From: an uncultured beta proteobacterium
GTDB lineage: Bacteria; Pseudomonadota; Gammaproteobacteria; Burkholderiales; Casimicrobiaceae
Assembly (NCBI GenBank): GCA_963749795.1
Contig: CAVVOR010000001.1
Location: 87,957-151,956 of the forward strand
DNA: 64,000 bases
Direction of reading: 5' to 3'
Position numbers and translations under genes: made by a program. Each line of letters opens with the position of its first letter. Position 1 is the first letter of the stretch. Below the pieces are notes generated by a model. That model was given only the letters and a program-made list of their open reading frames with translations. It had not been told where the DNA came from and made no database searches. Positions 7,337 to 62,085 of the stretch are shown here, one piece after another.

Positions 7337-7960
7337 TTGAACCAAATGATTCAAAATACCGCTAGGCCGCGGGGTCGACCGCGCAGCTTCGACGAGACGG
7401 GGGCGCTGGACAAGGCGACTCAGGTGTTCTGGTCGAAAGGCTACGACGGAGTGACGATCGACGATCTCGTCGCCGGGATGGGCGTAGGACGGCCGAGCCT
7501 GTATGCCGTCTTCGGGGACAAGCGGGCGATATTCTTGCGCGTCCTTATGGCGTACGCGGAACGGAAGGGCGCATTAGCCGCGAAGGCACTCCTCGCACCT
7601 CAGACTATTCGCGACGCGATCGCGGACTTTCTGAGGTACGCCGTCGAAAGTGCGACCCAGAAAGGGTCCGCCCGGGGCTGCCTCATGATGTGCGTCGCGC
7701 CGCTTGTGAATGACGCTGAGGTTCAGCGGTTCCTGCAGCGCGCCGTCGCGGGCGGCGTGGCGCTGGTGGAGCGCCGTTTCCGGGACGGGATCAGCGCGGG
7801 AGAAATCCCGCCTGACTTTCCGGTGGCCGTGCGCGCGGTCCAAGTCACAGATTTTGCTCGTGCCTTGACCATGCGTGCGCAGATAGGCACGCCGCGCAAG
7901 ACGCTCCTCAAAGAGGCAGAGGAAGCAACCGACTTGGTGCTTCAGCCGCGGCGCGTCTGA
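7337..7960 (+). CDS. TetR/AcrR-family transcriptional regulator
   Basis: HTH region LDKATQVFWSKGYDGVTIDDLVAGMGVGRPSLYAVFGDK. Confidence 0.9.
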   Translation: MNQMIQNTARPRGRPRSFDETGALDKATQVFWSKGYDGVTIDDLVAGMGVGRPSLYAVFGDKRAIFLRVLMAYAERKGALAAKALLAPQTIRDAIADFLRYAVESATQKGSARGCLMMCVAPLVNDAEVQRFLQRAVAGGVALVERRFRDGISAGEIPPDFPVAVRAVQVTDFARALTMRAQIGTPRKTLLKEAEEATDLVLQPRRV

Positions 7961-8219
7961 CGGGTTATCGGAAACAATTCACTGAGAAATGACCATGACA
8001 ACTGACATGAGCGGGCGACCTGGAGCATTTCGCAAGTCCGGCCATGGTTTCTATGCGTACGGCTGACTTGGTTTTGGACGCAAGGCCGTGTTGTCGACGC
8101 GTCGCTCTGATTCGACGCGTCAGTCCACTCCCAATCGCGTACGTGCATTTGCCGGCGTGAGCGCCGGTCGGCCTGCCATCTTAATGGAAAGTGGCGCACG
8201 CCACGACTTTCCCGATTTG

Positions 8220-9185
8220 CTATTGCGCCTTGATCCCCGCGGCCTTGATGACCTTCGCCGAATCCTCGATTTCCGCCTGCACGAACTTGTGGAACTCGGC
8301 TGGGGTCATCGGCATCGGTTCGGCACCCAGCGTCGCGAGCCGCTCCTTGACGTCGGGCGCCTGCGCCGCCCGGTCGATGTCCTTGTTGATCTTGTCGACG
8401 ATGTCCGGCGGCGTTCCGGCCGGCGCGAACACGCCGACCCACAGGTTGTAGTCGAATCCCGGCAACGCCGCCTCGGCGATCGTCGGTACGTTGGGCAATG
8501 CGCTCGACCGCTTGGCCGTACTCACCCCCAGCGCGATCAGCTTGCCTTCGCGCACGTTGGGTAACGCCGCCGAGATCGGTGAAAAGAAAAACGTGACGCG
8601 GCCGGCCAGCGTGTCGTTAAGCGCCTCGGGCGTGCCTTTGTAGGGGATGTGCACGACGTCGATGCCGGCCGCGAGCTTGAATTTCTCCGCGTTGATATGC
8701 GTGCCGCTGCCGGTGCCGGCGGATCCGAAGTTAAGTTGCCCGGGTTTTTGCTTGGCCAGCGCGATCAGCTCCGCGACGGACTTGACCCCGGTGGCTGGCG
8801 CGACGATGAGCACGTTGGGTTGCCCGGCGAGAGGTGCAATCTCGGCGAAATCCTTGGACGTGTCGTAGGAAAGCGTCGGGTAGATCGACGCGTTGTAAGC
8901 CTGCGCAGCGGAGTTCACCAGCAGCGTGTAGCCGTCGGGCGGGGATTTCGCCACCACCGCGGCGCCGATCGTGCCCCCGGCCCCCGGGCGGTTCTCGACG
9001 ATCACCGACTGGCCCCACATCTCCGACAATTTCTGACCAAAGGTGCGCGCCAGGATGTCGGTGGCGCTACCCGCGGTGAACGGAACGATGAGACGCACGG
9101 TCTTGTTCGGATAACCCTGTCCCGTCGCCAACGGCACGCAACAAAGCGCAATCGCGATGCCGGCAATCCAGCGCCCGAGTTTCAT
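8220..9185 (-). CDS. Bug/TctC-family tripartite tricarboxylate transporter substrate-binding protein
   Basis: Signal peptide, then YPNKTVRLIVPFTAGSATD.., the characteristic Bug-family N-terminus. About 320 aa. Confidence 0.9.
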   Translation of the reverse strand: MKLGRWIAGIAIALCCVPLATGQGYPNKTVRLIVPFTAGSATDILARTFGQKLSEMWGQSVIVENRPGAGGTIGAAVVAKSPPDGYTLLVNSAAQAYNASIYPTLSYDTSKDFAEIAPLAGQPNVLIVAPATGVKSVAELIALAKQKPGQLNFGSAGTGSGTHINAEKFKLAAGIDVVHIPYKGTPEALNDTLAGRVTFFFSPISAALPNVREGKLIALGVSTAKRSSALPNVPTIAEAALPGFDYNLWVGVFAPAGTPPDIVDKINKDIDRAAQAPDVKERLATLGAEPMPMTPAEFHKFVQAEIEDSAKVIKAAGIKAQ

Positions 9186-26669: not shown

Positions 26670-28173
26670 TTATGGTGGGGCTCGCCGTGAAGGGTTTGTT
26701 GCAAGACGCCTCTCGAAATCGGCACTCAATTCGTTGCGCTTGGGTTTTCCCATCTCGGTCCTCGGAATCGATGCCAGTCTTACAATCTGCTTGGGCGCGT
26801 GCAAACCCAGTTGCCCCCGGCAGAATGCCAGCAGCGCTGCCTCCGTCACACCGTCACTGTCGGCAATCGCCAGGATTGGAATATCCCCGTAGGCCAAGGA
26901 CCTTACCGCAAACGCCACGGCTTCGTTCACGCCCGGGAAGAACTTGTTTTTCTCAATTTCGGCCGCAAAGACATTGGTGCCGGCCAGAATCATCATGTCG
27001 TCGCTGCGACCGAGGAAGGCCAGCCTGCCGTCGGACGAGACCACTCCCTCATCTCCGGGATAGAACCAGCTGTTGCGGAAATGTTTTCGGTTTGCGATTT
27101 CATCGTCAAGGTAACTGTGGACGATCATTGGCGTCCGCATGCGGATGATGCCGGGTGTTCCGGCGGGGAGGACTTGATCCGCAGGGGAAACGATCTGCAG
27201 TTCTACGCCGGGGAGGGGGGAGCGACCGAGTCTTCGTTGGCCGTGCGGTCGATGGCGCGTGGCCACCGTGGCGGTGCCGACCTCGGTCGAACCGTACCGG
27301 ATGTTGGTCTGTGACCGCAGCACGCCGAACGCATCGGTCGAAAAGCGATGACGAAACGGTCGATCCGGCGAGATCGATCCGGATGTGATCCAGCACCGGG
27401 AACGGCCCCGGGAGGGCTTCGGCTTGCACGAGCAGCGCTTCCGCACTGTGGGTGAACATTTGGATTTCGGTGCAGGCGTTCCGCGCGCATGTCTGGAGGA
27501 TGTCCGAATTGCGCAGCGTCGAAGACAGGACCGACGTCGCACCAAAGAGCAAGTCGATGAAAGCCCGGCCCTTCGGTGCGTTGTTTTCGATGGAGGACAG
27601 GAGCAGCACCACGCGGGGAGGGACCGAGTGCTCGTACCTGCGGTCGAGGAGGTTGCGCTGGCGGAAAGGCATTAGCTTGGGCCTGCCGGTACTGCCGGAG
27701 TTGGCGAAGATGACCAGGCTCTTCTCATGCGCGGCGACCGGGACATCGCAGCGTCCTTCCGCAATCGCCGTCGCGGCCACGGCCCGCGCATCGAGCACGA
27801 TGGCGCCTGCGTCGGGAACCACGGTCGAATCGCCCTCGCAACATGCCAGCGGATCTTCAGCCGCCGAGCCGTGAGGATGCTCGCAGGCATGGGATCGTTA
27901 GTCGCGAGGCAAACCTGCGAGCAAGCAAGCTCGATAAGCCAGCGAGACCAGGAGGTGGTCGTATTCGTGCCTGACCGTAATGCCGGCAAGATCACCCGCG
28001 CGCACACCCGAATTCCGGAGCCACTGCGCCATGCGCAGGACGTCGGTCCAAAGCTCCGCGTAGGAAATACGCTCGTTGGCGTGGATGACAGCAGCGGTGC
28101 CGGGAATCGTCGCGGCGTGGCGAGCAACGACGTCGGTGAGGCACCGGTGTTCCTGGGAGGGTTGTGCGCTCAC
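26670..28173 (-). pseudogene. acyl-CoA synthetase (AMP-binding family) with an in-frame TAA and a frameshift
   Basis: ANSGSTGRPK P-loop motif. The ORFs 27898..28173 and 27106..27822 are in the same frame, separated by TAA at 27898-27900. A further shift near 27340-27400 leads into ORF 26670..27545 (..WFYPGDEG..GRSDDMMILAGTNV..). Confidence 0.75.
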
Positions 28174-33461: not shown

Positions 33462-35682
33462 CTAAGACAACAACTTGTCCACGGTAATGGGCAGTTGGCG
33501 GACACGCACGCCTGTGGCGTGGTAGAGAGCATTACAAATGGCGGCCGCCACACCCGTGATACCGATTTCTCCGACACCGCGTACGCCGAGAGGGTTAAAG
33601 ATTAGATCAGGTACTTCGATGAAATTGACTTCCAAGCTCTGAATGTCAGCGTTGACCGGTACGTGATACTCCGACAGATTGGCGTTGACGAATCTGCCGG
33701 TGTTCAAATCGAGTATTGAGTGCTCCTGCAGAGCGAGGCTTATTCCCCACACAATGCCGCCCTGGATTTGACTGCGAGCGGTCTTAACGTTCAGGAGGCG
33801 GCCGACATCATAGGTAGCGACGACTCGCGGTACGCGTATTTGTCCAATATCTTCATCTACGGCGACTTCCACGAAGACGGCGCCGAACGAATGCAACGAG
33901 TGCTGGGATTTTTCGTCGCCTGGCCCGACATGCGCATTGGCTTCTATTGGTTTCCCCTGCCGAGCTGCGACGCTCGCGACTCGCTCTTTGGTGGATGAGG
34001 CGCGTAAGGAGAGCCAGCCGTCGACAAAATCGATCTGATCCACGGCGGCGCCATAAAGAGGAGACGCGCGGTCTGCGACCGCGGATGCAGCGATTTGTTG
34101 GCGCAAGGCAAGACACGCGGCTTGCACCGCGGGAGAAACACTCGCCGCTGTGGTCGACCCTCCCGACACCGGCGCTTCCGGAAACGTCGTGTCCCCGAGC
34201 TCGAAGCGGACGGTATGGATTGGCATGCCTAAGGTTTCCGCGGCCACCTGAGTCATCACCGTATATGTGCCGGTGCCGATATCCTGCGAGCCTGATTTAA
34301 CCATCACCAACCCGTCGGGAAACAATACCGCTGACGCGGATGCCGGCGAACGGTTCGCTGGATATGTAGCCGTTGCCATTCCCCAGCCGCGAAGCAGCGG
34401 ACCGTCGTGCATCGACCGTGGTCGGGGAGGGCGCGTGCTCCAGCCAAAACGCGCGGCCGCGTCGCGGTAGCAATCGCGCAGCTGTTTGCTTGAAAAGGGC
34501 TTCCCGCTCTCCGGTTCCGTTTCCGCGTAGTTGCGTTCACGCAGTTCCAGCGGATCAATGCCGAGTTTGTAGGCCAGTTCGTCCATGGCCACTTCGAGTG
34601 CGAAGGACCCCGTCGCTTCGCCTGGGGCGCGCTGAAATGTCGGCGTCCCGACATTCAACTGTGTCAGACGATGAGCCGTGCTCACGTTCGGACACGCATA
34701 GAGCATGCGGGTGACCATGGCGGACGGCTCAACGAAATCTTCGATCGCTGACGTATGCGAGACGACTTCGTGTTGCATCGCGGTCAGCTGTCCATCCGCT
34801 TGCGCGCCCAGCACTATCCGCTGCTCCGTTTGTGGACGGCCACCGACGGGGCCAAACATCTGCGGGCGTGTCAACACGAGCTTGACGGGTTGCTGCAACT
34901 TTCGCGCGGCCATTGCGGCAAGCACCACATGCGACCACACCGACCCCTTACAGCCAAAGCCGCCACCGACAAATGGCGATACGACTCTCACTCGCCTCTG
35001 GATCGATGCCGAGAACCTTCGCCACGGTTTTCTGAACACCGGTAATGTACTGAGTCGAGTCATACAAGGTCAGATGTGCGCCTTCCCAGTGCGCGACGGT
35101 CGCATGCGGCTCCATCGGGTTGTGGGTTTGCATCGGGGTCGAATAGGTTGCTTCGACCGTGGCCGCGGCCGCAGCAAGCGGAGCCTTTGCGTCGCCCCAG
35201 CCCTTGTCCGCATCCGCCTGCCCGGCCTTCTTGGGCTGGTATGAGTTGGACTTCGCCTGATCGAAATTCAGCGTTGCCGCGACCGTCGAATAAGTTACGC
35301 GCAACAACGACGCCGCTGTAGTGGCCTGTTCGAGCGAAGCCGCAACGACCACCGCGATCGGTTGTCCGTGATAATGCACCACGTCATCTTGCAGCAAGGA
35401 CAGTACCCGCCCGGCAGGGGGATTTACCGCCGCGCGTCCTCCGTCCGGCAAGCGCGGCGCATTCGCGTGCGTCATTACGAGCCTGACTCCAGGAGCGTGT
35501 TCCGCGCGCGTTACATCCATGGCGACGATTCTTCCCTGCGCAACCGTACTTTGAACCAACACGGCGTGGCACAGCCCCGGCAATGTTACGTCGCCGGCGT
35601 AGCGCGCGCTTCCGGTTACCTTGAGCGCGCCGTCCGTGCGATCAAGTGGCTGACCGATCCATTTGGACTCGGTCGAGTTCAT
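33462..35682 (-). pseudogene. molybdopterin-binding large subunit of a PaoABC/xanthine-dehydrogenase-family aldehyde oxidoreductase, one extra base
   Basis: ORF 34948..35682 (N-terminus) and ORF 33462..35063 (..VSPFVGGGFGCKG..) join as ..LGIDPE|RVRVVSPF.. if one base is removed at 34995-34996. Length is 1 mod 3. Confidence 0.8.
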
Positions 35683-44892: not shown

Positions 44893-44997
44893 ATGAAAGC
44901 AAAAGCAGGCAACACAAAAGGCGCTGCGCAGACGAAGAATGAACAGAAGAACGACAAGAAAGCTCCCGGCGGGGCTGGAAAAACCAAGAAACGCTAG
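44893..44997 (+). CDS. possible 34-aa lysine-rich small protein
   Basis: MKAKAGNTKGAAQTKNEQKNDKKAPGGAGKTKKR. GGAG 6 nt upstream of the ATG. Below the ORF-track length cutoff; no homology evidence. Confidence 0.3.
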   Translation: MKAKAGNTKGAAQTKNEQKNDKKAPGGAGKTKKR

Positions 44998-45022: not shown

Positions 45023-45712
45023 TTACAGGCCGCGCGATCCGAGAACCCCAGCTGCTTGCGCCCGACGGTTTATTCTGAGTTTTTGAAACGCGTTGCTTAA
45101 ATAATTCTTGACGGTTTTGTCGCTTAACCCGAGGGCCTTCGCGATTTCCTTGTTCGTCTTGCCGTCGACGACCAAGGCGAGGACACGCCGCTCTTGGCTC
45201 GACAGGGTGTCTGCCGGTTGAGGTTTGGCCAGAACGACTTCTCGCGCCAGCGCCGTCATCCGCTGCAGCACGGGCTGGGTGACTTTCGCGTCGAGAATGG
45301 ACTCGCCTCGGTTGACGCTCTCGATGCCCGCAACCAAAGCCGTAGCGCCGATCTCCTTGAGCAAATATCCCGACGCTCCTGCCGCAACGGTTGAGAATAC
45401 CGCCTCGTCGTCCGAATGTGATGTCAGGAACAGCACTTTCACCCTCGGATTCGCCGACAGGATTTCCCGACAAGCCTCGATTCCCGTCCCGTCCGGGAGA
45501 CGCAAGTCCATCAATATGACGTCAGGATTCAGTTTGCCTGCGACGCTTATGGCTTGCGTCACCGTTGCCGCCTCGCCGATGACGGAAATGGAATCCGACT
45601 GACTGAACAGCGTTTTCAGGCCCAGCCTGACCACTTCGTGATCATCGACAAGCATCAACCGAATCTTAGATCGTGCCAAGTGCCCCTCCGCTATCGCCGA
45701 TGCTGAGGTCAA
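45023..45712 (-). CDS. NarL/LuxR-family response regulator
   Basis: Receiver (LMLVDDHEVVRLGL.., DLRLPDGTG) plus LuxR HTH (EIAKALGLSDKTVKNYLSNAFQKL). The true start may be downstream of 45712 (TTG 45679 or ATG 45655). Confidence 0.85.
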   Translation of the reverse strand: MTSASAIAEGHLARSKIRLMLVDDHEVVRLGLKTLFSQSDSISVIGEAATVTQAISVAGKLNPDVILMDLRLPDGTGIEACREILSANPRVKVLFLTSHSDDEAVFSTVAAGASGYLLKEIGATALVAGIESVNRGESILDAKVTQPVLQRMTALAREVVLAKPQPADTLSSQERRVLALVVDGKTNKEIAKALGLSDKTVKNYLSNAFQKLRINRRAQAAGVLGSRGL

Positions 45713-46580
45713 CCACTACTTTCGTGCCTTTGCCCGGGCGAGAGTGAACGTGAGCCTTGCCGCCCATTTTTCGTGCGCGGGCATCGATGTGATGGAGTCC
45801 CAATCCCGTACCGGAAACGGCGCCTGGGTCGAATCCGATGCCATCGTCTCTGATTTCCAGACGAACGCCGGCTTTGACAAGCCGAAGGCTTACCCGTCCG
45901 CGCTGCGCTTTCGCGTGACGGACAGCATTGCTGATGCTTTCGCGGGAGATTTGCAGCATATGGAGCGCCTGGTCCGCGGATAATGATCGCATCGCGTCGT
46001 CTTCTATACTGACTGCGACGTCAAGTCCGTGGTTCTTTGCGGCGTTCGCCACTCGTTCAATTTCGGTCCGCAGAGTTTCGCGCGACTCGATGCCTGGTGT
46101 TCGGCCGTTGATAAAAGCCCTTAACTCGTGAATGACCAGGTTTAAAGTTGCAGAGGACTCCGCGATCACCTGACTGACTTTCTTTGGGTTGGTTTCGACC
46201 AAGCGCAAAGAAGTTTCCAAATTGAGACCGACGGCGTAGATGGACTGGATACACCCGTCGTGCATGTCCTGAAAGAGGCGCTCGCGCTCCTCCATAAGCG
46301 CATGCGCGCGTTGCTCTGAACGGGCTATCTCTGCGCTACTCAATTGCAGCGCAGTTTCCGTGCGTTCAATTTCGTCGAATGTCTTGAGTGCGTACAACGA
46401 GTGGGCCTTGTCCGATTCGATCACCAGGGCATCGACTTGGCCGGCACGTATCGCAGCAAGCGTTTCTTCGGCCTCATCCCGCGATGCATCGGATCCGCGA
46501 AGGGCCGACGTGGACGCCTTCGCTGGTTGAGGAGGGCGCCCCCGCATTCCCGCGCGTGGTTTGTGCTGTGTTGGCTTCAT
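45666..46580 (-). CDS. soluble histidine kinase (HisKA_3 + HATPase_c)
   Basis: H-box [18 protein letters not shown]. ATPase G-boxes DDGIGF and GLGLHHI. No TM segment. ATGA overlap with the kaiB stop. Confidence 0.85.
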
Positions 46581-46907
46581 CGATCGGGTTTGAGATCAAG
46601 ACCGACCAGGACCCTCTCCGTGTCGGACAGATCGCCAATGATCTTCCGCATCGGCGAAGGAAGCTGCCGGACGACAGTAGGCAACGCCAATATCTGATGT
46701 TCTTTTGCCAGCTTTGGGTTCTTGATCAAATCGATGACCTCAATTCGATAGCCCGCTCCCGTGGCGAGGTGCTCCTCGCAGATCCGCTTGAGGTTGACGA
46801 GCGCCGCCCGCGACCTTACTGTCTCGCCCGCGATGTAGAGAAACAGGACGTGCGCGGCGGCTTTGCGAGGTTTGCGTCGGCGGCACTTGGGCCGCGGTGC
46901 GCGTCAT
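46577..46907 (-). CDS. kaiB: KaiB-family protein, start/frame unresolved
   Basis: Not in the ORF track. My translation of 46577..46864: [95 protein letters not shown]. The only nearby ATG (46905-46907) is one frame off. Length is 1 mod 3. Confidence 0.75.
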
Positions 46908-48410
46908 GTCGACGACGAGGACGTGAAATCCTCCTTGTATCTCGATCCCGCGCTTGGACATGAGGAAACGGTACGTGCAATCGGAAGTGGACATGCCGCG
47001 AGCTTTGATGATCGACAGTTTCCGCGATCGGACGCCGTTGGTTTCGGCGTTACGTACCGAAAGCCACGCATCGACAATGGATGAGACGTTTACAACCGTC
47101 GACTGGCCGACGGGGCCCGAATGGGTCAACCCGGTCATAAACAGGGTGATGCCATTCATTTTTAAAAAATCCACCAAGCGTACGCAGACTGCAGCGACCT
47201 CGTTGTACGTCCCCATCGAGATCAGGCTCGTCATTGAATCGACGACAACGACCGTTGGACGATATTCGATGACGGCCTCGTGGATCGTGGCCAGATGCAT
47301 TTCGAGGCCATAGGCCGTTGGTCGCGTGACGTGAAACCGGAGCAGGTCGTCCTTGACAGCGCCACGTAGTTTGACCCCTATCGAGCTCGCATTGCGGACG
47401 ATCTCACTTTCCGATTCTTCCAGCGCGACATAGAGTGAGCGTTCCTTACGGCGGGCCGCTTCCGCGACGAAATGCGCGGCGACGCTGCTTTTCCCGGTTC
47501 CAGCGTCGCCCGAAATCAGAATAGTGCTGGCCCGGTAAAAGCCACCGGCACCGAGCGCCTTGTCGAGGGAAGGCACACCACTCGAAATCACCCCGCTGGA
47601 CGCCTTGTGATCAAGGGTCACCGAGGTGATGGGAACAACCGATATACCCTTTTCGAGAATCAGGAAAGGATATTCATCCGTGCCATGAAGCGTGCCGCGA
47701 TACTTGACGATGCGGAGGCGTCGTGAGCTCAGCTGGTTCACGACGCGGTGGTCGAGGAGGATAACGCAGTCGGAGACATATTCCTCGAGGCCGTGTCGTG
47801 TCAATGCGCCGTCGCCGCGTTCTCCGGTTATGACGGCGGTGATGCCGCGCGCCTTGAGCCACTCGAAGAGTCGGTGCAGTTCCGCGCGCAGAATCGCGAG
47901 GTTGGAAAAGCCGCCAAATAAAGCTTCCAGCGTATCGAGAGCGACCCGTTTCGCGCCGATCGAGTCGATCGCAACGCCGAGCCGAATAAAAAGACCCTCA
48001 AGGTCGAAAGCTCCGCTCTCTTCTATTTCGTTGCGCTGCACCCGAATGTGTTCGATGACGAGCTTCTTGCGCGCGATCAACTTCTGAACGTCGAAACCCA
48101 TCGAGGCCACGTTTTGCTCCAGATCGTGTTCGCTTTCTTCAAATGACACGAACACACCGGGCTCGTTGAATTCTCGCGCGCCTCTGACCAGGAACTCCAT
48201 GCAGAGCATGGTCTTGCCGCAACCCGCACTACCGCAAATCAAGGTGGTGCGGCCTCGCGGAAAGCCTCCGTGGGTTATTTCATCAAGTCCTTGTATCCCG
48301 GTCGGAGCCTTCGGCAGTGTCCGAGTACGTGTTTTCCGTCCTGACGGGTCGCGGGAGGACGAGCGGGTGCGGGAACTTGGTTTGGGCATGTCTGGTAGGC
48401 CTCTAAGCAA
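46740..48410 (-). CDS. kaiC: KaiC-family double RecA-like ATPase
   Basis: Two Walker A motifs ([16 protein letters not shown]) and [16 protein letters not shown]. Recognisable KaiC sequence ends near 46945 (..[11 protein letters not shown]). The last ~55 codons of the ORF overlap kaiB in another frame and are probably not genuine. Confidence 0.85.
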
Positions 48411-48535
48411 TTAGACAGGAACACCCCGGCGCGCAATAGAGCCATTGGCCCTATTCAAACTAGGACCGTCTGGCACTTTCCGTGGCGCACCAACCATTCT
48501 AACCTTGCAATGAACCCCTCTGGGTCAGACCCGCG

Positions 48536-48850
48536 GTGGTTGGTCTGACGCCGCTAAAGCAGGAGGGCGTGGCGATACGTACATCAATGGAGCTACAAAT
48601 GTCTGGGCCGATGGAATTCGTTCTTTATGCGCGCGCAGAACGGGACCTTTGCGAGCAGGCAGGGCCGGCGCTGAGCGAGGTGGTGCGTACACTGGCGCAA
48701 CGAGACAATATTCAGATTAAAGAGATTCGAGTGACATTCGACTGGGACGCGCAGAATGGAGAAGTGGTCGCCGCCAACTGCACAATCGTCACGGAGAATG
48801 GACACGGGTCGCGCCCGGCCGCGGTGAAAATCGCGACGGCACAATCCTGA
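48536..48850 (+). CDS. hypothetical protein divergent from kaiC
   Basis: ORF only. Start uncertain (alternative ATGs at 48587 and 48599). No motif recognised. Confidence 0.35.
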   Translation: MVGLTPLKQEGVAIRTSMELQMSGPMEFVLYARAERDLCEQAGPALSEVVRTLAQRDNIQIKEIRVTFDWDAQNGEVVAANCTIVTENGHGSRPAAVKIATAQS

Positions 48851-48938: not shown

Positions 48939-49016
48939 TCAGAAATGGGAGAACAGTCCGACCAGAATGATAATCGGCAGCGGCACACCGAGAATTAGCA
49001 ATAACAATGAGCGCAT
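48939..49016 (-). CDS. possible 25-aa hydrophobic peptide
   Basis: MRSLLLLILGVPLPIIILVGLFSHF. GGAG 6 nt upstream of the ATG. Lies at the distal end of the katE operon. Confidence 0.35.
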   Translation of the reverse strand: MRSLLLLILGVPLPIIILVGLFSHF

Positions 49017-50032
49017 CGCAAGCTCCAATTGAAAGAATGAAATATTCGGGCACTTAGCGGGACAAAAACACGGTCGCGTTGTCGTCCCCCGAAAGTGGCC
49101 GCCAGGCTCGGCGCAAAAAGGCACCCAGTCAGAAGGGCAACAAAGAACCAGAGCGAAGCCTTCGCCGCCGCACTACGTGCATCGTCCGCTGCACCCTTGG
49201 CTTTCGCCTCCGCGTCCGCAGCAACGTTCTTTGCCTTTGCGTAAATCGTGTCGACTCTTGCTTCGGCATCGGTTTGTGAAATGCCAGTCTGCGCTGCGAT
49301 AACCTGCGCGGCGTAGGTCCGATCCGCAGGGGAAATAGCACCTGTGCGCACTGCTTCAATAATCACTCCGCCAATCTCGGCGCGGGTCTGCGGCGCTATC
49401 GGCGCGGTAACGTGGTCGGCGCGAAACAAGGAGTCCGTCAGATAACGGGTCTGTGCGTCGCGCGGCGAGTATTGGCCGCTATTCGACGTCGAAGCGGAAC
49501 CAGGGCCATCGGTGGGATTCTCGCCCTTTGCGTTCAACGCCGTCATCGCCCCCGTCGCCCCCGTCGCAGCCACCGCTGTCGCACCAGCCGCTGCCGCTTT
49601 GACGCCGGTGGAAACCGCTGATGTGAAGGCTGAAGCGAGCAACCCGACGGTGATGACCACGCCGACCGCCCAGACTATGAATCCGTGCGCAGTATCGCGA
49701 AAATACACTTCATCACCGTGCACGGATGCCCACTTGATTCGCAATCGCCCGGCTAGGTAGCCGCCCAGACCCGAGGAGATCGCTTGGGTGATGATTAACC
49801 AGACGATCGCTGAGGCTCCGATGGCCGCCGCCGATGCCCCGGCACCCGTCCAAGGCGATATCGAGGACAGGCCCAGTCCAACGCCGAGAACAGTCAATAT
49901 CAATGCCGCTGATGCGGCAACAAATGCTCCGCCAATTATCGCGCCCCACGACACGCCCGACGCGGAAAGGTCGGCGTCGACTAAGGGGACGGTGGGGGTG
50001 TTGCGCGAAATCGGCAATGTTTGGTCATTCAT
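48995..50032 (-). CDS. membrane protein of unknown function
   Basis: Start MNDQTLPIS at 50032. Gly/Ala-rich TM helices, Ala/Lys-rich helical region, terminal ..ATFGGRQRD. The C-terminal ~20 codons overlap the small-peptide ORF, so the end is uncertain. Confidence 0.6.
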   Translation of the reverse strand: MNDQTLPISRNTPTVPLVDADLSASGVSWGAIIGGAFVAASAALILTVLGVGLGLSSISPWTGAGASAAAIGASAIVWLIITQAISSGLGGYLAGRLRIKWASVHGDEVYFRDTAHGFIVWAVGVVITVGLLASAFTSAVSTGVKAAAAGATAVAATGATGAMTALNAKGENPTDGPGSASTSNSGQYSPRDAQTRYLTDSLFRADHVTAPIAPQTRAEIGGVIIEAVRTGAISPADRTYAAQVIAAQTGISQTDAEARVDTIYAKAKNVAADAEAKAKGAADDARSAAAKASLWFFVALLTGCLFAPSLAATFGGRQRDRVFVPLSARIFHSFNWSLRCAHCYC

Positions 50033-50034
50033 TT

Positions 50035-50688
50035 TTACTCTCCAAAAAGGGGAACAAATCGAACTGCCGGTCGCCAAGTGCTAGTCTTTTGAAGAACCAT
50101 CTCGTCACGGCTTTGTTCGGCACGCGCCGCGCCGATCGCCGTCGTAACGTGCTTCACTTCTTCTGGCGGCGGGAGCACCGCTGCAATACCGAGCGCCTGC
50201 AGCCACAGCTCACGAGCCCAGCCCTTGGTGTGGTAGAGGTGCTCGTCTTCTTCGTCTTCGATCTGCTCGTATGCATCGCGCAACGCGTTGCCTTTGCCAC
50301 CGAGTTTGTCGGCAAGCTTTCCCATTAGCTCCCAATTGGAATGGTCTTTGGTCTCGGCCAGGACGACGCACTCTGCTGCGACGATCTGTGCCGCTTCAGG
50401 CGACGGCCCTTTGGCCGCCATGCGGATCGCCTCGAGCAAGGCGCCCCCGATGTGATGGACTACGCGCCGACCGGGTACGTCCGCGTCCGGGTCCAGACCG
50501 AAGGCTTCCATTACGCCACGCATCACCTTGACGTGATTGCGGGTCTGTTCGAGATAGTGGGCCCATTCCTTTCTCAAGTCCTCCCGAAGGGCACAGCCGA
50601 CGGCCGCTTCGTAGATTTGCACGCCACCCATTTCGGTTTCCAGCGCTTGATAGAGGAGATCGTTGATCGGCATATTTACTTTTGACAT
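50035..50688 (-). CDS. ferritin-like four-helix-bundle domain protein
   Basis: MSKVNMPINDLLYQALETEMGGVQIYEAAV..EDEEDEHLYH.. GGAG RBS. The ORF-track N-terminal extension (to 50913) overlaps katE and is rejected. Confidence 0.6.
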   Translation of the reverse strand: MSKVNMPINDLLYQALETEMGGVQIYEAAVGCALREDLRKEWAHYLEQTRNHVKVMRGVMEAFGLDPDADVPGRRVVHHIGGALLEAIRMAAKGPSPEAAQIVAAECVVLAETKDHSNWELMGKLADKLGGKGNALRDAYEQIEDEEDEHLYHTKGWARELWLQALGIAAVLPPPEEVKHVTTAIGAARAEQSRDEMVLQKTSTWRPAVRFVPLFGE

Positions 50689-50711
50689 GGTGTAACTCCT
50701 GTGGGGATGCA

Positions 50712-53111
50712 TTAGACGGAAGGTGGGAATGACGCTCGGAGAAAATGTCGGTGCTGCGCGAGTGCTGCAATGAATCGTGTGACCGCGGCGCGATCCCCTT
50801 CGTGAGGGAATAAAAGTAGACCGGGATCGGGGTCGCCGTTGGGTAGCCGTAAAGGCACGCCGGCGTTTTCGATGACGTCGATGCCGGCCATGACGCCGAA
50901 AATGGGCTTGCAATGCCGATACTGATCTTTGATGAATTCGGCTGCGAGGCCTAACTTGCCCAGGTTCTGGGCGTTCAGCCGGCCACCCGTCACTGCGACG
51001 GCGTCGTACAACACCGCGGGCGTTGTCTCAAACGTCGCTTCTACTTGCAAGTGACGGCCATCTTCGCTCTCCACCGATCCCAGGTGATCGCCAACCAGAA
51101 TGGCTACCGCACCGGCCTTGGCGAGAGCATCCTGTAGATTTGAGACAAAGTTGCCTTCCACGCCGTCGGCGACCAGAAGCGCCACCTTGCGTCCGCGCAC
51201 ACTCCCTTCACCTGGGCGAGCGAAGAGCGACAAAGCGCGCGACAGCTCGATTTCCGGCTTCTTGATTCTTTTTGACGCCAAGGGGAGCGCAGTTGGAACC
51301 GCCAGGCCGAGGTCAGCCGCGACTTGCTCAGCAAGCTCGGGGGCGACGTTCGCAAGAAGTGCAACGACCCGTGTTCTTATTGCGGGGGTTTGGACCTTGG
51401 TCAGTTCGAAGCGGAAAGCGCGCCGGATGTGTGCCTTCTCGATCGTTGTCTGGCTGTTCCAGAACAGCGTCGCCTGGGCGTAATGTTCGGCAAAGCGTTC
51501 GGGCTTGCCTCGAACTTTGTCGGCTTCGATAGGTTCGGGAAAGGAAGCGAAGCCTTGTGCTCCAGCTTGGAAGGGACAACCACCGCCAAGCGAATTCGGC
51601 TCGTACGCCACTTTCCCGCGCGGAATCGCCTGGCGATGCATGCCATCGCGTTGGTTGTTATGCGACGGCGCGATCGGGGAGTTGATCGGCAGTTCGTGAA
51701 AATTGGGACCGCCCAAACGGGAGATCTGCGTGTCGAGGTATGAGTGAATCCGTCCCGCGAGCAGCGGGTCGTTAGAAAAATCCAACCCGGGGACGATGTG
51801 CGCGGCGCAGAAAGCCACCTGTTCCGTTTCAGCGAAAAAATTGTCCGGGTTGCGATCGAGCACCATCTTGCCTACCGGAATGACAGGCACGAGTTCTTCC
51901 GGAATAAGCTTGGTCGCGTCGAGAACATCAAAACTGAAGCTGGCGGCCTGCGCCTCGGAAAATATCTGCATCCCAAGCTCGAACTCGGGAAACACACCCG
52001 CTTCGATCGATTCCCATAAATCGCGCCGGTGAAAATCGGGATCAGCGCCGCAGATTTTCACGGCTTCGTCCCAATCCAGCGAATGCGTTCCCCCCTTGGG
52101 CTCCCAATGGAACTTCACAAACTTGCTGTCGCCTTTCGCATTTATCAGTCGAAAGGTGTGCACGCCAAAACCTTGCATCGTCCGGTAACTCCGCGGTATC
52201 GCGCGGTCGGACATAATCCACATCAGCATATGCGCTGACTCGGGCATCAGCGACACGAAATCCCAGAAGGTGTCGTGCGCCGTCGCGGCTTGAGGCATTG
52301 CAAAGTGTGGTTCGGGCTTCGCTGCGTGGATCAAGTCAGGAAATTTCATTGCGTCCTGGATGAAGAACACGGGAATGTTGTTGCCGACAAGGTCCCAGTT
52401 CCCTTCGTCCGTATAGAACTTGACCGCGAAGCCACGTACATCCCGCACCGTGTCGGCCGAACCTCGCTCGCCAGCAACGGTCGAGAAGCGTACGAACACG
52501 GGCGTGCGCTTGCCCGCGCCTGCGAAGATAGAGGCGCGGGTATATTTGCTTAAGGGCTTGTAGCATTCGAAGTAGCCGTGCGCCCCTGAACCCCGTGCGT
52601 GGACGATTCGCTCTGGAATCCGCTCGTGGTCGAAATGGGTGATTTTTTCGCGGAGGATGAAATCTTCGAGAAGGGCGGGACCACGAAACCCTGCTTTCAG
52701 CGAGCTCTGGTTATCGCCGATCGGCACGCCTTGATTGGTGGTCAGTGTCTGACCCGTAGAATCCGCCCGCGCTCTATCCAATGTCGCGCTGGCGGGATCC
52801 TTGCCAAGCTCGGGCTTACCTTTTCCTGTTTTCGCAGACGCGACCGTCTCGGTGAGAGTGCTGCCTAAAAGTGACGGATCTGCGGACTTCGCAATCCTTC
52901 CCTGCGGCGGCACCTTCGAGTCGTCGCCGTATTCAAGACGCTTGTTGACGTTCGCGGGGAACGCTGCCGCCAGATCATTGGCCGCGGCGAGCCGCTTTGA
53001 ATAGATGTCGTCCGTTTTCGAGGGGCGCTTCGACGGGCCGTCCACGGTTGACTTGGCGTATGCCGACCGTCCGGTGATATTTTTCCCAGCTTTCGGCTTC
53101 TGACGTGGCAT
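50712..53111 (-). CDS. katE: large-subunit (HPII-type) catalase
   Basis: [22 protein letters not shown] catalase core. About 800 aa with a C-terminal flavodoxin/DJ-1-like domain and a long N-terminal extension. Confidence 0.93.
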
Positions 53112-60528: not shown

Positions 60529-62085
60529 ATGGCTCAAGACCAAACTGAGCGAAGCGGCCCCGATCTGACTCAGGGGATTGCGTTCAACGAGCTCGTCGCC
60601 GTCGGCAAACTGGTCGGTTATGTCGGCGACGAAGAGGTCCTCCTGGTGTGTCGCGGGACCGAGGTGTTCGCCGTGGGCGCCCATTGCACTCACTACCACG
60701 CGCCGCTCGTCGACGGCTTGGTCGTTGGCGATACCGTCCGCTGTCCGTGGCACCACGCTTGTTTCGACCTGCGCACGGGCGATGCGATACGCGCCCCGGC
60801 CTTGAGCCCTATTGCTTGCTGGTCGGTCGAGCAACACGACGGCAAATCTTCGTGCGAAAGAAACGCCAAGAGGCGGCTCCGGTCCCGCGCAGTGGCCCTT
60901 CCCGCAAAGGTCCCGAAAAAATTGTGATTGTCGGCGGCGGTGCAGCCGGTTTTGCCGCGGCCGAGAAGCTCCGGCGTGAGCAATATCAAGGCAGCATCGT
61001 CATGCTGAGCGATGACGATGCTGCGCCGGTCGACCGCCCAAATTTGTCCAAGGACTTTCTCGCCGGCAATGCGCCGGAGGATTGGGTTCCTCTTCGGCCG
61101 GAGAGCTTTTATGTCGAACAGGACATCGACCTCCGCCTCAAGGCGAACGTCACCGGCATCGACGTGAGATCGCGCGAAGTCGGACTCGCCGATGGAAGCA
61201 AAGTGCCTTACGACCGGCTGCTGCTCGCAACCGGCGCTGAACCCGTGAAGTTGTCGATCCCGGGAGCCGACCAGCGACACGTATTCACACTGCGCTCGCT
61301 CGGCGATTGTCGGGCGATCATCGAGCGCGCGAATGACGGCTCGACGTGTTGTCGTGCTCGGGGCCAGCTTTATCGGGCTCGAGGTCGCCGCCGCTTTGCG
61401 CGCTCGCAATCTTGAAGTCCATGTTATCGCTCCGGAAAAACGGCCGATGGAACGCATCCTGGGTGCGCAAATGGGCGACTTCGTTCGTTCACTTCACGAG
61501 GAGCACGGGGTCGTCTTCCATCTGGAGGACACAGCGACCGCCCTCGATGGTGAGCAAGTCAAGCTCAAAGGTGGCGGCACCATTGAAGCGGACCTCGTCG
61601 TCGTCGGCGTCGGTGTGCGTCCTCGCATCCAGATTGCCGAGAAGGCAGGCCTCGGCATTGATCGCGGCGTCAGCGTGAACGCCTATCTCGAAACAAGCGT
61701 GCCTGAGATCTACGCGGCAGGAGACATCGCGCGCTGGCCCGATCCTCACAGCGGTGAGTCCATTCGCGTCGAGCATTGGGTCGTTGCCGAGCGCCAGGGG
61801 CAAGCGGCGGCAATCAACATGCTCGGGAGCCGCGAAAAATTCGCCGACGTCCCTTTTTTCTGGAGTCAGCACTACGACGTCCAGATCAACTATGTCGGCC
61901 ACGCCGAAAAATGGGACGAACTCACGATCGAGGGCGACATCCCTGGCAAAGACTGCCTGCTTCGCTTCAAGCTCGGTCAGCGCACGCTCGCAGTGGCCTC
62001 TATCTTCCGTGACTTGGAAAGCCTACAGGCCGAAGTGACCATGGAGCAGGACGCAGTGGACCGTCAAGCAGCGTCGGGGAAATAA
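60529..62085 (+). pseudogene. Rieske [2Fe-2S] domain fused to an FAD/NAD(P) ferredoxin-reductase-like oxidoreductase, two compensating indels
   Basis: Rieske CTHYHAPL..CPWHHACF. FAD fold KIVIVGGGAAGFAAA. NAD fold RRVVVLGASFIGLEVAA. Breaks at the AAA run 60844-60846 (one A missing) and at GG 61338-61339 (one G extra). Confidence 0.75.

Follow-up and report, generated by a model that had tools for sequence, protein, structure and literature searches.

Outside the cyanobacteria, operons in which kaiC and kaiB are joined by a histidine kinase gene have already been described (PMC3164672, PMC4794148; the general operon type also in PMC10076222), and the KaiBC core of one such system, that of Rhodobacter (Cereibacter) sphaeroides, has been dissected structurally. 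R. sphaeroides KaiC has 568 residues, with an extension that consists of an exposed A-loop and a coiled coil joining two hexamers (PMC10076222). C-terminal extensions of this kind, about 50 residues longer than in other KaiCs and forming a coiled coil, are predominant in KaiC2 (PMC10076222), of which a Ser-Ser phosphorylation pair is the published mark (PMC5520375, PMC10076222). How this core talks to the cell is a gap on which the locus described here bears. We analysed a 64-kb stretch of a soil betaproteobacterial contig (hereafter the window), reading the locus from the sequence and from database comparison. Its minus strand holds, between 45023 and 48410, four co-directional genes in the order kaiC, kaiB, HisKA_3 histidine kinase and NarL-type response regulator, the set and order that the first-pass annotation of this DNA had stated. 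We consider it fairly probable, with room for considerable doubt, that the locus is functional in nature as a KaiA-independent KaiC2-KaiB2 phospho-switch or timer with its own two-component output, organised as one translationally coupled operon, and that an apparent break at the kaiC/kaiB junction is an artefact. Two points are new relative to the literature searched: a short motif at the N-terminus of the kinase is linked almost exclusively to kaiB, in archaea as well as in bacteria, and tail-less KaiC2 proteins accompanied by a minimal HisKA_3 kinase and a NarL regulator form a conserved clade. This clade represents a natural loss of the tail that work on R. sphaeroides found necessary for dephosphorylation and for ring stability upon KaiB binding; its kinase is reduced to the catalytic core plus one short motif, and its DNA-binding regulator lies inside the operon.

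The four genes, all on the minus strand, are tightly packed. kaiC (46903-48389) starts at ATG 48389, with a GAGG 10 nucleotides (nt) ahead of it, and ends at the inferred true stop TGA 46905-46903; the single kaiB copy (46577-46906) runs from a putative ATG at 46906-46904 to the TGA at 46579-46577. The kinase gene (45666-46580; 304 residues) begins with an ATG that overlaps the kaiB stop in an ATGA at 46580-46577, just where the first-pass annotation had placed it. This overlap is kept in 5 relatives, and the kinase and regulator genes abut or overlap. The last gene (45023-45679) encodes a NarL/FixJ-type response regulator with a REC domain (PF00072, 88 bits), a GerE helix-turn-helix (PF00196, 68 bits) and visible VDDH and LMDLRLPDG motifs. 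TTG 45679 is its preferred, predicted start: a GGAGG lies 5 nt upstream, is conserved in the related locus L160, and the start gives a 14-nt overlap with the kinase gene. Gene callers on related contigs start the regulator at ATG 45655, 10 nt past the kinase stop. An overlap of the regulator with the kinase 3' end, as had been claimed, therefore holds if translation begins at TTG 45679 or at the alternative TTG 45712, and falls if it begins at ATG 45655. The kaiC-kaiB-kinase-regulator synteny is kept in 16 related loci (L001-L016), which together with the overlaps bears out the coupling of a dedicated HisKA_3 kinase and NarL-type regulator to kaiBC. The nearest related modules belong to Casimicrobiaceae and other betaproteobacterial metagenome-assembled genomes (MAGs) from soil, with KaiC at most 74% identical. 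KaiA was not found among the neighbouring genes scanned, a scan that did not cover the whole window exhaustively, and the earlier statement that kaiA is absent stands within that scope. The 48390-48598 region, which lies between kaiC and a divergent small open reading frame (ORF), is the presumed promoter region of the operon. A terminator-like hairpin with a T-rich tail (44909-44927, minus strand), about 100 nt past the regulator stop, is the probable operon end; it is a weak sign, as the consensus scan found 7 such sites against 5.1 expected in shuffles.

The long kaiC ORF (46740-48410) matches PF06745 in two stretches (E 7.5e-106) and scores 650 bits with NCBIfam NF006799 (cutoff 408), which identifies a double-domain, circadian-type KaiC. 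A Walker A motif is present in both halves (GSAGCGKT, GDAGTGKS), and the EE pairs read FEESE and LEESE. The two RecA-like halves and two Walker A motifs of the first-pass annotation are thus confirmed, and a RadA-like or single-domain archaeal KaiC, the finding named there as contrary to its reading, is not what the locus encodes. The phospho-site pair is Ser436/Ser437 (47084-47079), aligned with Ser413-Ser414 of R. sphaeroides, which is replaced by Glu-Glu in entry 8FWI. The equivalent of Thr426 is Thr431, 5 residues ahead of Ser436. Conservation of the phosphorylation sites, flagged earlier as a point to verify, is accordingly seen for the pair, as Ser-Ser, and for the threonine. Among solved structures, the best match is R. 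sphaeroides KaiC (8DB3, 8DBA, 8FWI; 550 bits over residues 25-484 with no large gaps), whereas cyanobacterial KaiC structures reach about 300 bits. With the cyanobacterial KaiC1 equivalog model TIGR02655 the protein scores 329 bits, short of the cutoff of 546.

The KaiB domain (PF07689, 81 bits against a cutoff of 27) is adjacent to kaiC, and the KaiB fold is encoded in 46577-46852. Its best solved match is again from R. sphaeroides, i.e., KaiB 8FWJ_M (105 bits, residues 19-105), from a structure of the KaiB-KaiC complex; Legionella KaiB (PDB 4KUN) matches more weakly (58 bits). As it stays below the cyanobacterial equivalog cutoffs (NF006798, 92 against 110 bits; TIGR02654, 90 against 145 bits), the protein is by its profile scores a member of the KaiB family and not a cyanobacterial KaiB1 equivalog. 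From its strong match to R. sphaeroides KaiB, it would be expected to switch fold and to bind the KaiC CI ring. Because R. sphaeroides provides the best match for both proteins, the Ser-Ser pair is present and the cyanobacterial equivalog models are not reached, we assign the two by sequence to the KaiC2/KaiB2 type; kaiC lying upstream of kaiB and the nearest proteins being of KaiC2 type agree with this. The earlier proposal of a KaiA-less, KaiC2B2-type cluster in kaiC-then-kaiB order was thus well founded. In this clade, the N-termini of KaiC, KaiB and the kinase are each extended by about 18-35 residues that are basic, rich in Ser, Arg, Lys and Pro, and apparently disordered (minus strand, 48389-48300, 46906-46853 and 46580-46480); these extensions vary in sequence and are also present in relatives.

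What sets this KaiC apart is its C-terminus. The protein ends about 10 residues past the last aligned residue of the CII core, without an A-loop and without a C-terminal coiled coil. The A-loop, whose conservation the first-pass annotation had proposed to check, is entirely lacking, and so is the coiled coil that typifies KaiC2. Tail length is 4-15 residues in the window, L001-L016 and L019, against 94-113 residues in most other KaiC2-type loci that we fetched, whose long tails have sequences of the form 'VDVYxGPxGVLTGSAR...' and then a heptad-like stretch. In a neighbour-joining tree of KaiC (midpoint root, no support values), the window and L001-L016 form one clade that is sister to the rest, with R. 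sphaeroides KaiC inside the rest. Every member of the window clade has a short KaiC tail, a single kaiB and a PAS-less kinase. The tail has also been shortened independently in other lineages (some Acidobacteriota, Rhodopirellula). Most long-tailed KaiC2 loci (among L017-L159 and L162-L360) have two tandem kaiB copies, and some methanogen loci three, ahead of the gene that bears the kinase motif described below; the tail-less clade always has one.

The kinase contains HisKA_3 (PF07730, 38.5 bits) and HATPase_c (PF02518, 59 bits) domains, and its N-terminal 95 residues or so match no Pfam family. Neither the Pfam scan nor the AlphaFold2 model revealed a transmembrane segment or a PAS, GAF or cofactor-binding domain. 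This confirms a soluble HisKA_3 kinase, as had been annotated. To call the cassette a complete 'sensor-timer-output' unit, as was done in the same place, is an overstatement, since no sensor domain can be recognised in it. Alignment of 57 members of the kinase family resolves a variable basic tail, a conserved segment, a long helix with His107 and the ATP-binding domain. His107 (46262-46260), in an H-box reading DMHDG, is invariant in these sequences. The family counts 567 database members at E<=1e-10; the 120 members listed have 244-331 residues, share both Pfam domains and are mostly of soil-metagenome origin.

The conserved segment (residues 36-68) reads EAExTLxAIRAGQ[IV]DALVI(6)[LI]YAL[KR][TS]F, in which T40, A43, I44, R45, G47, D50, A51, L52, V53, A64 and F68 are invariant among the 57 sequences. 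AlphaFold2 (mean predicted local distance difference test (pLDDT) score of 73) models residues 1-30 as disordered, followed by a helix (32-45), a beta-hairpin (51-56/59-64), a continuous helix (68-127), the second helix of DHp and the CA domain. Conservation in the N-terminal part of the kinase is hence confined to a motif of about 35 residues, a predicted helix plus beta-hairpin that runs straight into the signalling helix (motif at residues 36-72; 46365-46475, minus strand). Within the tail-less clade, L011 (7819-9477) and L019 (about 7815-8798 onward) have a longer kinase with about 230 extra residues between the motif and DHp; the motif therefore tolerates insertion of a sensor domain after it, as in PAS kinases elsewhere.

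This motif is linked to kaiB far beyond the window clade. A loose regular expression finds it once in the window, in the kai kinase, and in 53 of 80 KaiC loci, always on the kai strand and just past kaiB. These 53 loci include Methanoregula, Acidobacteriota, Desulfobacterota and a Pleurocapsa cyanobacterium, and in such other lineages the motif continues as '...VFTLxGAxHPYRxLVExM' into a PAS domain. A similarity-ranked search with an alignment of eight motif sequences against species-representative genomes added 79 new loci, with kaiB at most 600 nt upstream in 75 and kaiC in 73 of them. Ranking bias was avoided by an unsorted scan of 185,579 species genomes with a degenerate DNA pattern of IR.GEVDA.VV, and here the full motif was present in 105 of 120 matches. 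Where at least 700 nt of upstream sequence was available (97 full-motif matches), kaiB ended 83-255 nt upstream in 95 cases (median 126). Chance matches in unrelated proteins made up the remaining 15 of the 120, and 13 of these had no kaiB upstream. The only two full-motif cases with ample upstream sequence and neither kaiB nor kaiC nearby, L163 (a Peribacteraceae MAG) and L248, may be orphan copies or relocated effectors. As R. sphaeroides was not recovered in the species-representative set, the motif was verified in Rhodopseudomonas and Bradyrhizobium instead. Our literature search found no description of the motif, although one may still exist.

Its almost exclusive occurrence directly behind kaiB, in many phyla and in methanogens too, makes the motif a concrete candidate for an interface between Kai proteins and their effector. 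From its sequence context we read it as a Kai-coupling element and the kinase as an output component. Under the mechanism that we propose, the KaiC hexamer, lacking A-loop and coiled-coil tail, would autophosphorylate by default on Ser436/Ser437 at a high ATP/ADP ratio; KaiA would be dispensable because there is no A-loop to be buried. KaiB would then bind the CI ring of phosphorylated, post-hydrolysis KaiC, as in 8FWJ, and the KaiB-KaiC complex might recruit or switch the kinase through its 35-residue N-terminal helix-hairpin. The resulting change in kinase/phosphatase balance toward the NarL-type regulator would set transcription. As the kinase has no other input element, we propose that the helix-hairpin is how it registers the state of the Kai complex; its placement on the output side rests mainly on the missing sensor domain. 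We infer all of the protein-protein contacts, the direction of signalling and any timing behaviour in this scheme.

Signalling could run the other way, with the kinase sensing a redox or metabolic signal and phosphorylating or modulating KaiBC. A passage of PMC5520375 indeed cites the suggestion that, in R. sphaeroides, the PAS kinase encoded in the kaiBC operon passes a redox signal on to KaiBC, and the PAS domains that follow the motif in most other lineages could sense signals. The kinase of the window clade, however, has no PAS domain, transmembrane segment or cofactor-binding domain, and the NarL regulator immediately downstream, in an overlapping or abutting frame, is the architecture of an output branch. 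We therefore judge an input role to be quite improbable and retain the kinase as output.

A broader idea is that the helix-hairpin is a general docking module that connects KaiB2-KaiC2 systems, bacterial and archaeal, to their effectors, perhaps by beta-strand addition to fold-switched KaiB. The window clade would then be the minimal natural form, with a tail-less hexameric KaiC, one KaiB and a kinase made up solely of docking motif and catalytic core. CikA and KaiA of cyanobacteria use beta-strand addition to fold-switched KaiB. We put this generalisation forward tentatively and would sooner expect it to fail than to hold; if true, it would offer a testable model for Kai output outside cyanobacteria and for a KaiC2 reset without coiled coil.

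Several observations weigh against the proposed switch and its coupling to the kinase. The helix-hairpin is modelled at a pLDDT of only 53-63. Linkage to kaiB is silent on which Kai protein the motif contacts, if any, and on whether the kinase is input or output. Nor is the motif universal: in loci selected by KaiB similarity it lies within 700 nt downstream in 42 of 77, a set that includes Rhodopseudomonas and Bradyrhizobium, carriers of the published kaiC-kaiB-PAS/HK operon type. A sigma-70 consensus scan upstream of kaiC found no promoter; a search of the same region for repeats or palindromes as binding sites of the regulator likewise gave nothing convincing. The delta-coil variant of R. 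sphaeroides KaiC forms a hexamer with normal nucleotide exchange and a normal rate of autophosphorylation, yet it hardly dephosphorylates and dissociates to monomers on KaiB binding (PMC10076222). By analogy, a KaiC that lacks the tail by nature may be unable to cycle, or may do so only with a further partner. The tail-less clade must therefore reset differently, be stabilised differently, or act as a switch and not an hourglass.

The poor dephosphorylation of coil-less R. sphaeroides KaiC also speaks for a view in which the locus is not a timer and shows no hourglass behaviour: KaiC would be a constitutively phosphorylated ATPase, responsive to stress or growth phase, that tunes a two-component pathway as in Legionella and Pseudomonas. 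The host, a non-phototrophic-looking soil bacterium, fits this view as well, and so do the genes for a catalase and for a membrane protein that recur close to the module in a few relatives. Conservation of KaiB, the Ser-Ser pair, the Thr426 equivalent and both EE pairs would, on the other hand, be needless for a simple ATPase, and the Pseudomonas systems lack KaiB. Overall we find it rather unlikely as a separate explanation; it also overlaps with the phospho-switch that we favour, which needs no timing. The locus may be a timing device or a mere reporter of energy or stress, as the Legionella and Pseudomonas homologues seem to be.

The reading of the locus as an intact operon depends on the kaiC/kaiB junction, which is broken in the window as written. 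Downstream of the in-frame TGA at 46905-46903, the first ATG, GTG or TTG that the kaiB frame offers is a mid-gene TTG at 46729, and the listed ORF of that frame begins only there; kaiB is thus missed by the ORF track, just as had been remarked. kaiC has no stop at the expected place and continues out of frame for about 55 codons, across the kaiB 5' half, to 46740. In the ATGA at 46906-46903, the ATG is in the kaiC frame and the TGA in that of kaiB, opposite to the arrangement required. All 17 closest relatives have a kaiC stop 4-15 codons past the core with a kaiB start that overlaps or abuts it, and a kaiC-to-kaiB frame offset of 2, against 1 in the window.

Comparison with related sequences locates two frameshift sites on the minus strand. 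At site 1 in the kaiC tail (46935-46936), the window reads CAAGGAGG, one base too many. It is out of frame both with a 99%-identical read, which is shorter by one A, and with 90%-identical contigs, which are longer by two bases (CAAGAAGAGG). At site 2 in the kaiB 5' part (46877-46887), there is one extra base in a GCCGCCGACG run. The read stems from soil-metagenome run X4, a 151-nt unitig with 1 mismatch in 139 nt that lacks base 46878 and has T for TT at 46935/36. A contig of about 91% identity (X2) lacks one base at 46887 and has two extra bases behind 46933, and the same two differences appear in the alignment of Illumina contigs L160 and L161, whose kinase is 90% identical. The natural variants at site 1 hence differ from each other by a whole codon, and the window alone is out of frame. 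In L160, gene calls give the kaiC 3' end, a 109-residue KaiB with ATGA at both ends, a 304-residue kinase and a 210-residue regulator. Removal of the extra bases makes the kaiC TGA overlap the kaiB ATG (ATGA at 46906-46903), yields a KaiB of 108-109 residues and, with either correction, a KaiC C-terminus of ...RGIEIQ(E)EDFTSSSST before the stop. Eight further public runs (X5-X11, X13) were compared with 46780-47020; seven gave no match and the two contigs of X9 miss the junction.

Other genes of the window are split as well. A pyridine-nucleotide-disulphide oxidoreductase gene (Pyr_redox_2; 60648-62085, plus strand) is split near 61340, with profile positions 2-139 and 143-291 in two overlapping ORFs, and in a related metagenome contig a single base is missing at 61336, precisely at this split. 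An AMP-binding enzyme lies in three pieces (26670-28173, minus strand) and a molybdopterin dehydrogenase large subunit (33462-35682, minus strand) is split near 35000. We count about six indels in the 64 kb, all single-base where examinable. Several single-base frameshifts in unrelated genes are typical of indel-prone long-read assemblies and not of a free-living soil bacterium. Because relatives and near-identical reads lack the extra bases, and because other window genes are frameshifted, an assembly error of two spurious single bases is the likeliest explanation of the broken junction as judged from these comparisons. Gene calls in this assembly consequently need frameshift-aware handling, as the 'missing' kaiB exemplifies.

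A real double frameshift in the strain would count against a functional locus: KaiB would not be made, KaiC would carry a 55-residue nonsense tail and the pair would be decaying. The window as given has neither a kaiB start nor a kaiC stop, and no public run shows its own junction either way. Yet past the shift the kaiB frame is intact, 60-75% identical to relatives and free of stops, KaiC, kinase and regulator are otherwise full length, and the intact form exists in a strain that shows 1 mismatch in 139 nt. Moreover, at least three unrelated window genes are frameshifted, and at least one of these splits lies where the window has a single base more than a related contig. Real breakage is accordingly very improbable in our view. 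A non-canonical start or a programmed frameshift for kaiB was also considered and is ruled out by the ordinary ATG/GTG starts of relatives, which overlap the kaiC stop; near-identical reads without both bases and the frameshifts in other window genes further oppose a programmed frameshift.

Upstream of the operon, a divergent ORF called as an 83-residue gene (48599-48850, plus strand) matches no Pfam family. It occupies the same position upstream of kaiC in 7 relatives (L001-L006, L009), with two invariant Cys in the consensus ...AERQLCeEAGP...RVTxDW...ANCTI, and may be a fifth member or regulator of the kai module. A word-indexed homology search returned only the window's own protein and one close relative. 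Next come, on the minus strand, a 360-residue membrane protein without Pfam family (48995-50077), which ends 585 nt upstream of the kaiC ORF, an ORF of ferritin-like appearance by eye, though without a Pfam match (50035-50913), and katE, a large-subunit (HPII-type) catalase gene (50712-53111). The first-pass annotation had put the start of a katE stress operon 0.5 kb from the module. katE actually lies 2.3 kb upstream of kaiC, beyond two genes and the 585-nt gap, and it is the conserved divergent small ORF that is found within 0.2-0.5 kb. Homologues of the membrane-protein gene adjoin the kai module in three relatives (L006, L011, L014). katE does so in only one of 17 close relatives (L014), and also in the distant L063; we reject it as a general part of the kai system. 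An ABC transporter operon follows downstream of the module. Third-position GC content is 0.62-0.68 in the kai genes, kinase and katE against 0.72-0.85 in many other window genes, which may hint at a different origin or expression level.

Of the known systems, the KaiBC hourglass of R. sphaeroides (8DBA, 8DB3, 8FWI, 8FWJ; PMC10076222) is closest in its proteins. It shares the Ser-Ser pair, the Thr426 equivalent, the kaiC-then-kaiB order and the lack of KaiA. Its KaiC, however, has an extension of about 100 residues that brings about a dodecamer and fast dephosphorylation and holds the ring on KaiB binding, whereas the window KaiC stops about 10 residues past the Pro463 equivalent. The window protein is in effect a natural and even shorter version of the delta-coil construct, and its 10-residue tail departs from the coiled-coil extension otherwise characteristic of KaiC2.

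The kaiC-kaiB-PAS/HK operon of Rhodopseudomonas palustris (PMC4794148) has the same gene order with the kinase right after kaiB, and in two Rhodopseudomonas loci (L303, L308) the kinase starts with the same helix-hairpin motif as the window kinase. The order of kaiC, kaiB and kinase as read from the sequence is that of this operon type, and their overlaps would fit a presumed single transcription unit. R. palustris, in contrast, has one or more PAS domains in the kinase and a long KaiC tail, whereas the window has HisKA_3, a NarL-type regulator in the operon and no PAS domain, so that its kinase falls outside the operon type in this respect. We know of no dedicated HisKA_3/NarL pair described in the Synechocystis KaiC2-KaiB2 or Legionella KaiBC clusters. 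Gene order and Ser-Ser pair place Synechocystis KaiC2-KaiB2 and the KaiBC of Legionella pneumophila in the KaiC2/KaiB2 subgroup together with the window proteins (PMC5520375). The KaiC-histidine kinase pairs of Ramlibacter and Pseudomonas (PMC3164672; bioRxiv 10.1101/2022.01.26.477890) are likewise proteobacterial, with KaiC beside a kinase and proposed stress roles, but they lack the KaiB that the window has, and possess a different N-terminal kinase domain ('RtaNt') and single-domain regulators.

With respect to the cyanobacterial clock, the window KaiC is not of the KaiC1 type: it scores below the TIGR02655 cutoff, has no A-loop or tail, and is not accompanied by KaiA among the scanned neighbours. 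Its alignment with Synechococcus elongatus KaiC extends as far as residue 484 or so, and the protein stops about 5 residues further on, at the very point at which an A-loop would start. S. elongatus KaiC truncated ahead of the A-loop was reportedly hyperphosphorylated without KaiA in work by Kim and colleagues from 2008. Such a truncation before the A-loop is also referred to in PMC10076222. It is an engineered mutant of a KaiA-dependent KaiC1, whereas the short C-terminus of the window KaiC is a natural, conserved feature of a KaiC2 clade. On the output side, SasA-RpaA follows the same logic as the one that we propose here, in that a soluble kinase without an environmental sensor docks N-terminally on the Kai complex and in turn drives a regulator that binds DNA. 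None of the components are homologous, however: SasA has a KaiB-like thioredoxin-fold domain, HisKA and the OmpR-type partner RpaA, whereas the window kinase has no KaiB-like N-terminal domain but the 35-residue helix-hairpin, HisKA_3 in place of HisKA, and a NarL-type partner. By analogy, the window kinase may thus work like SasA without being a member of the SasA type.

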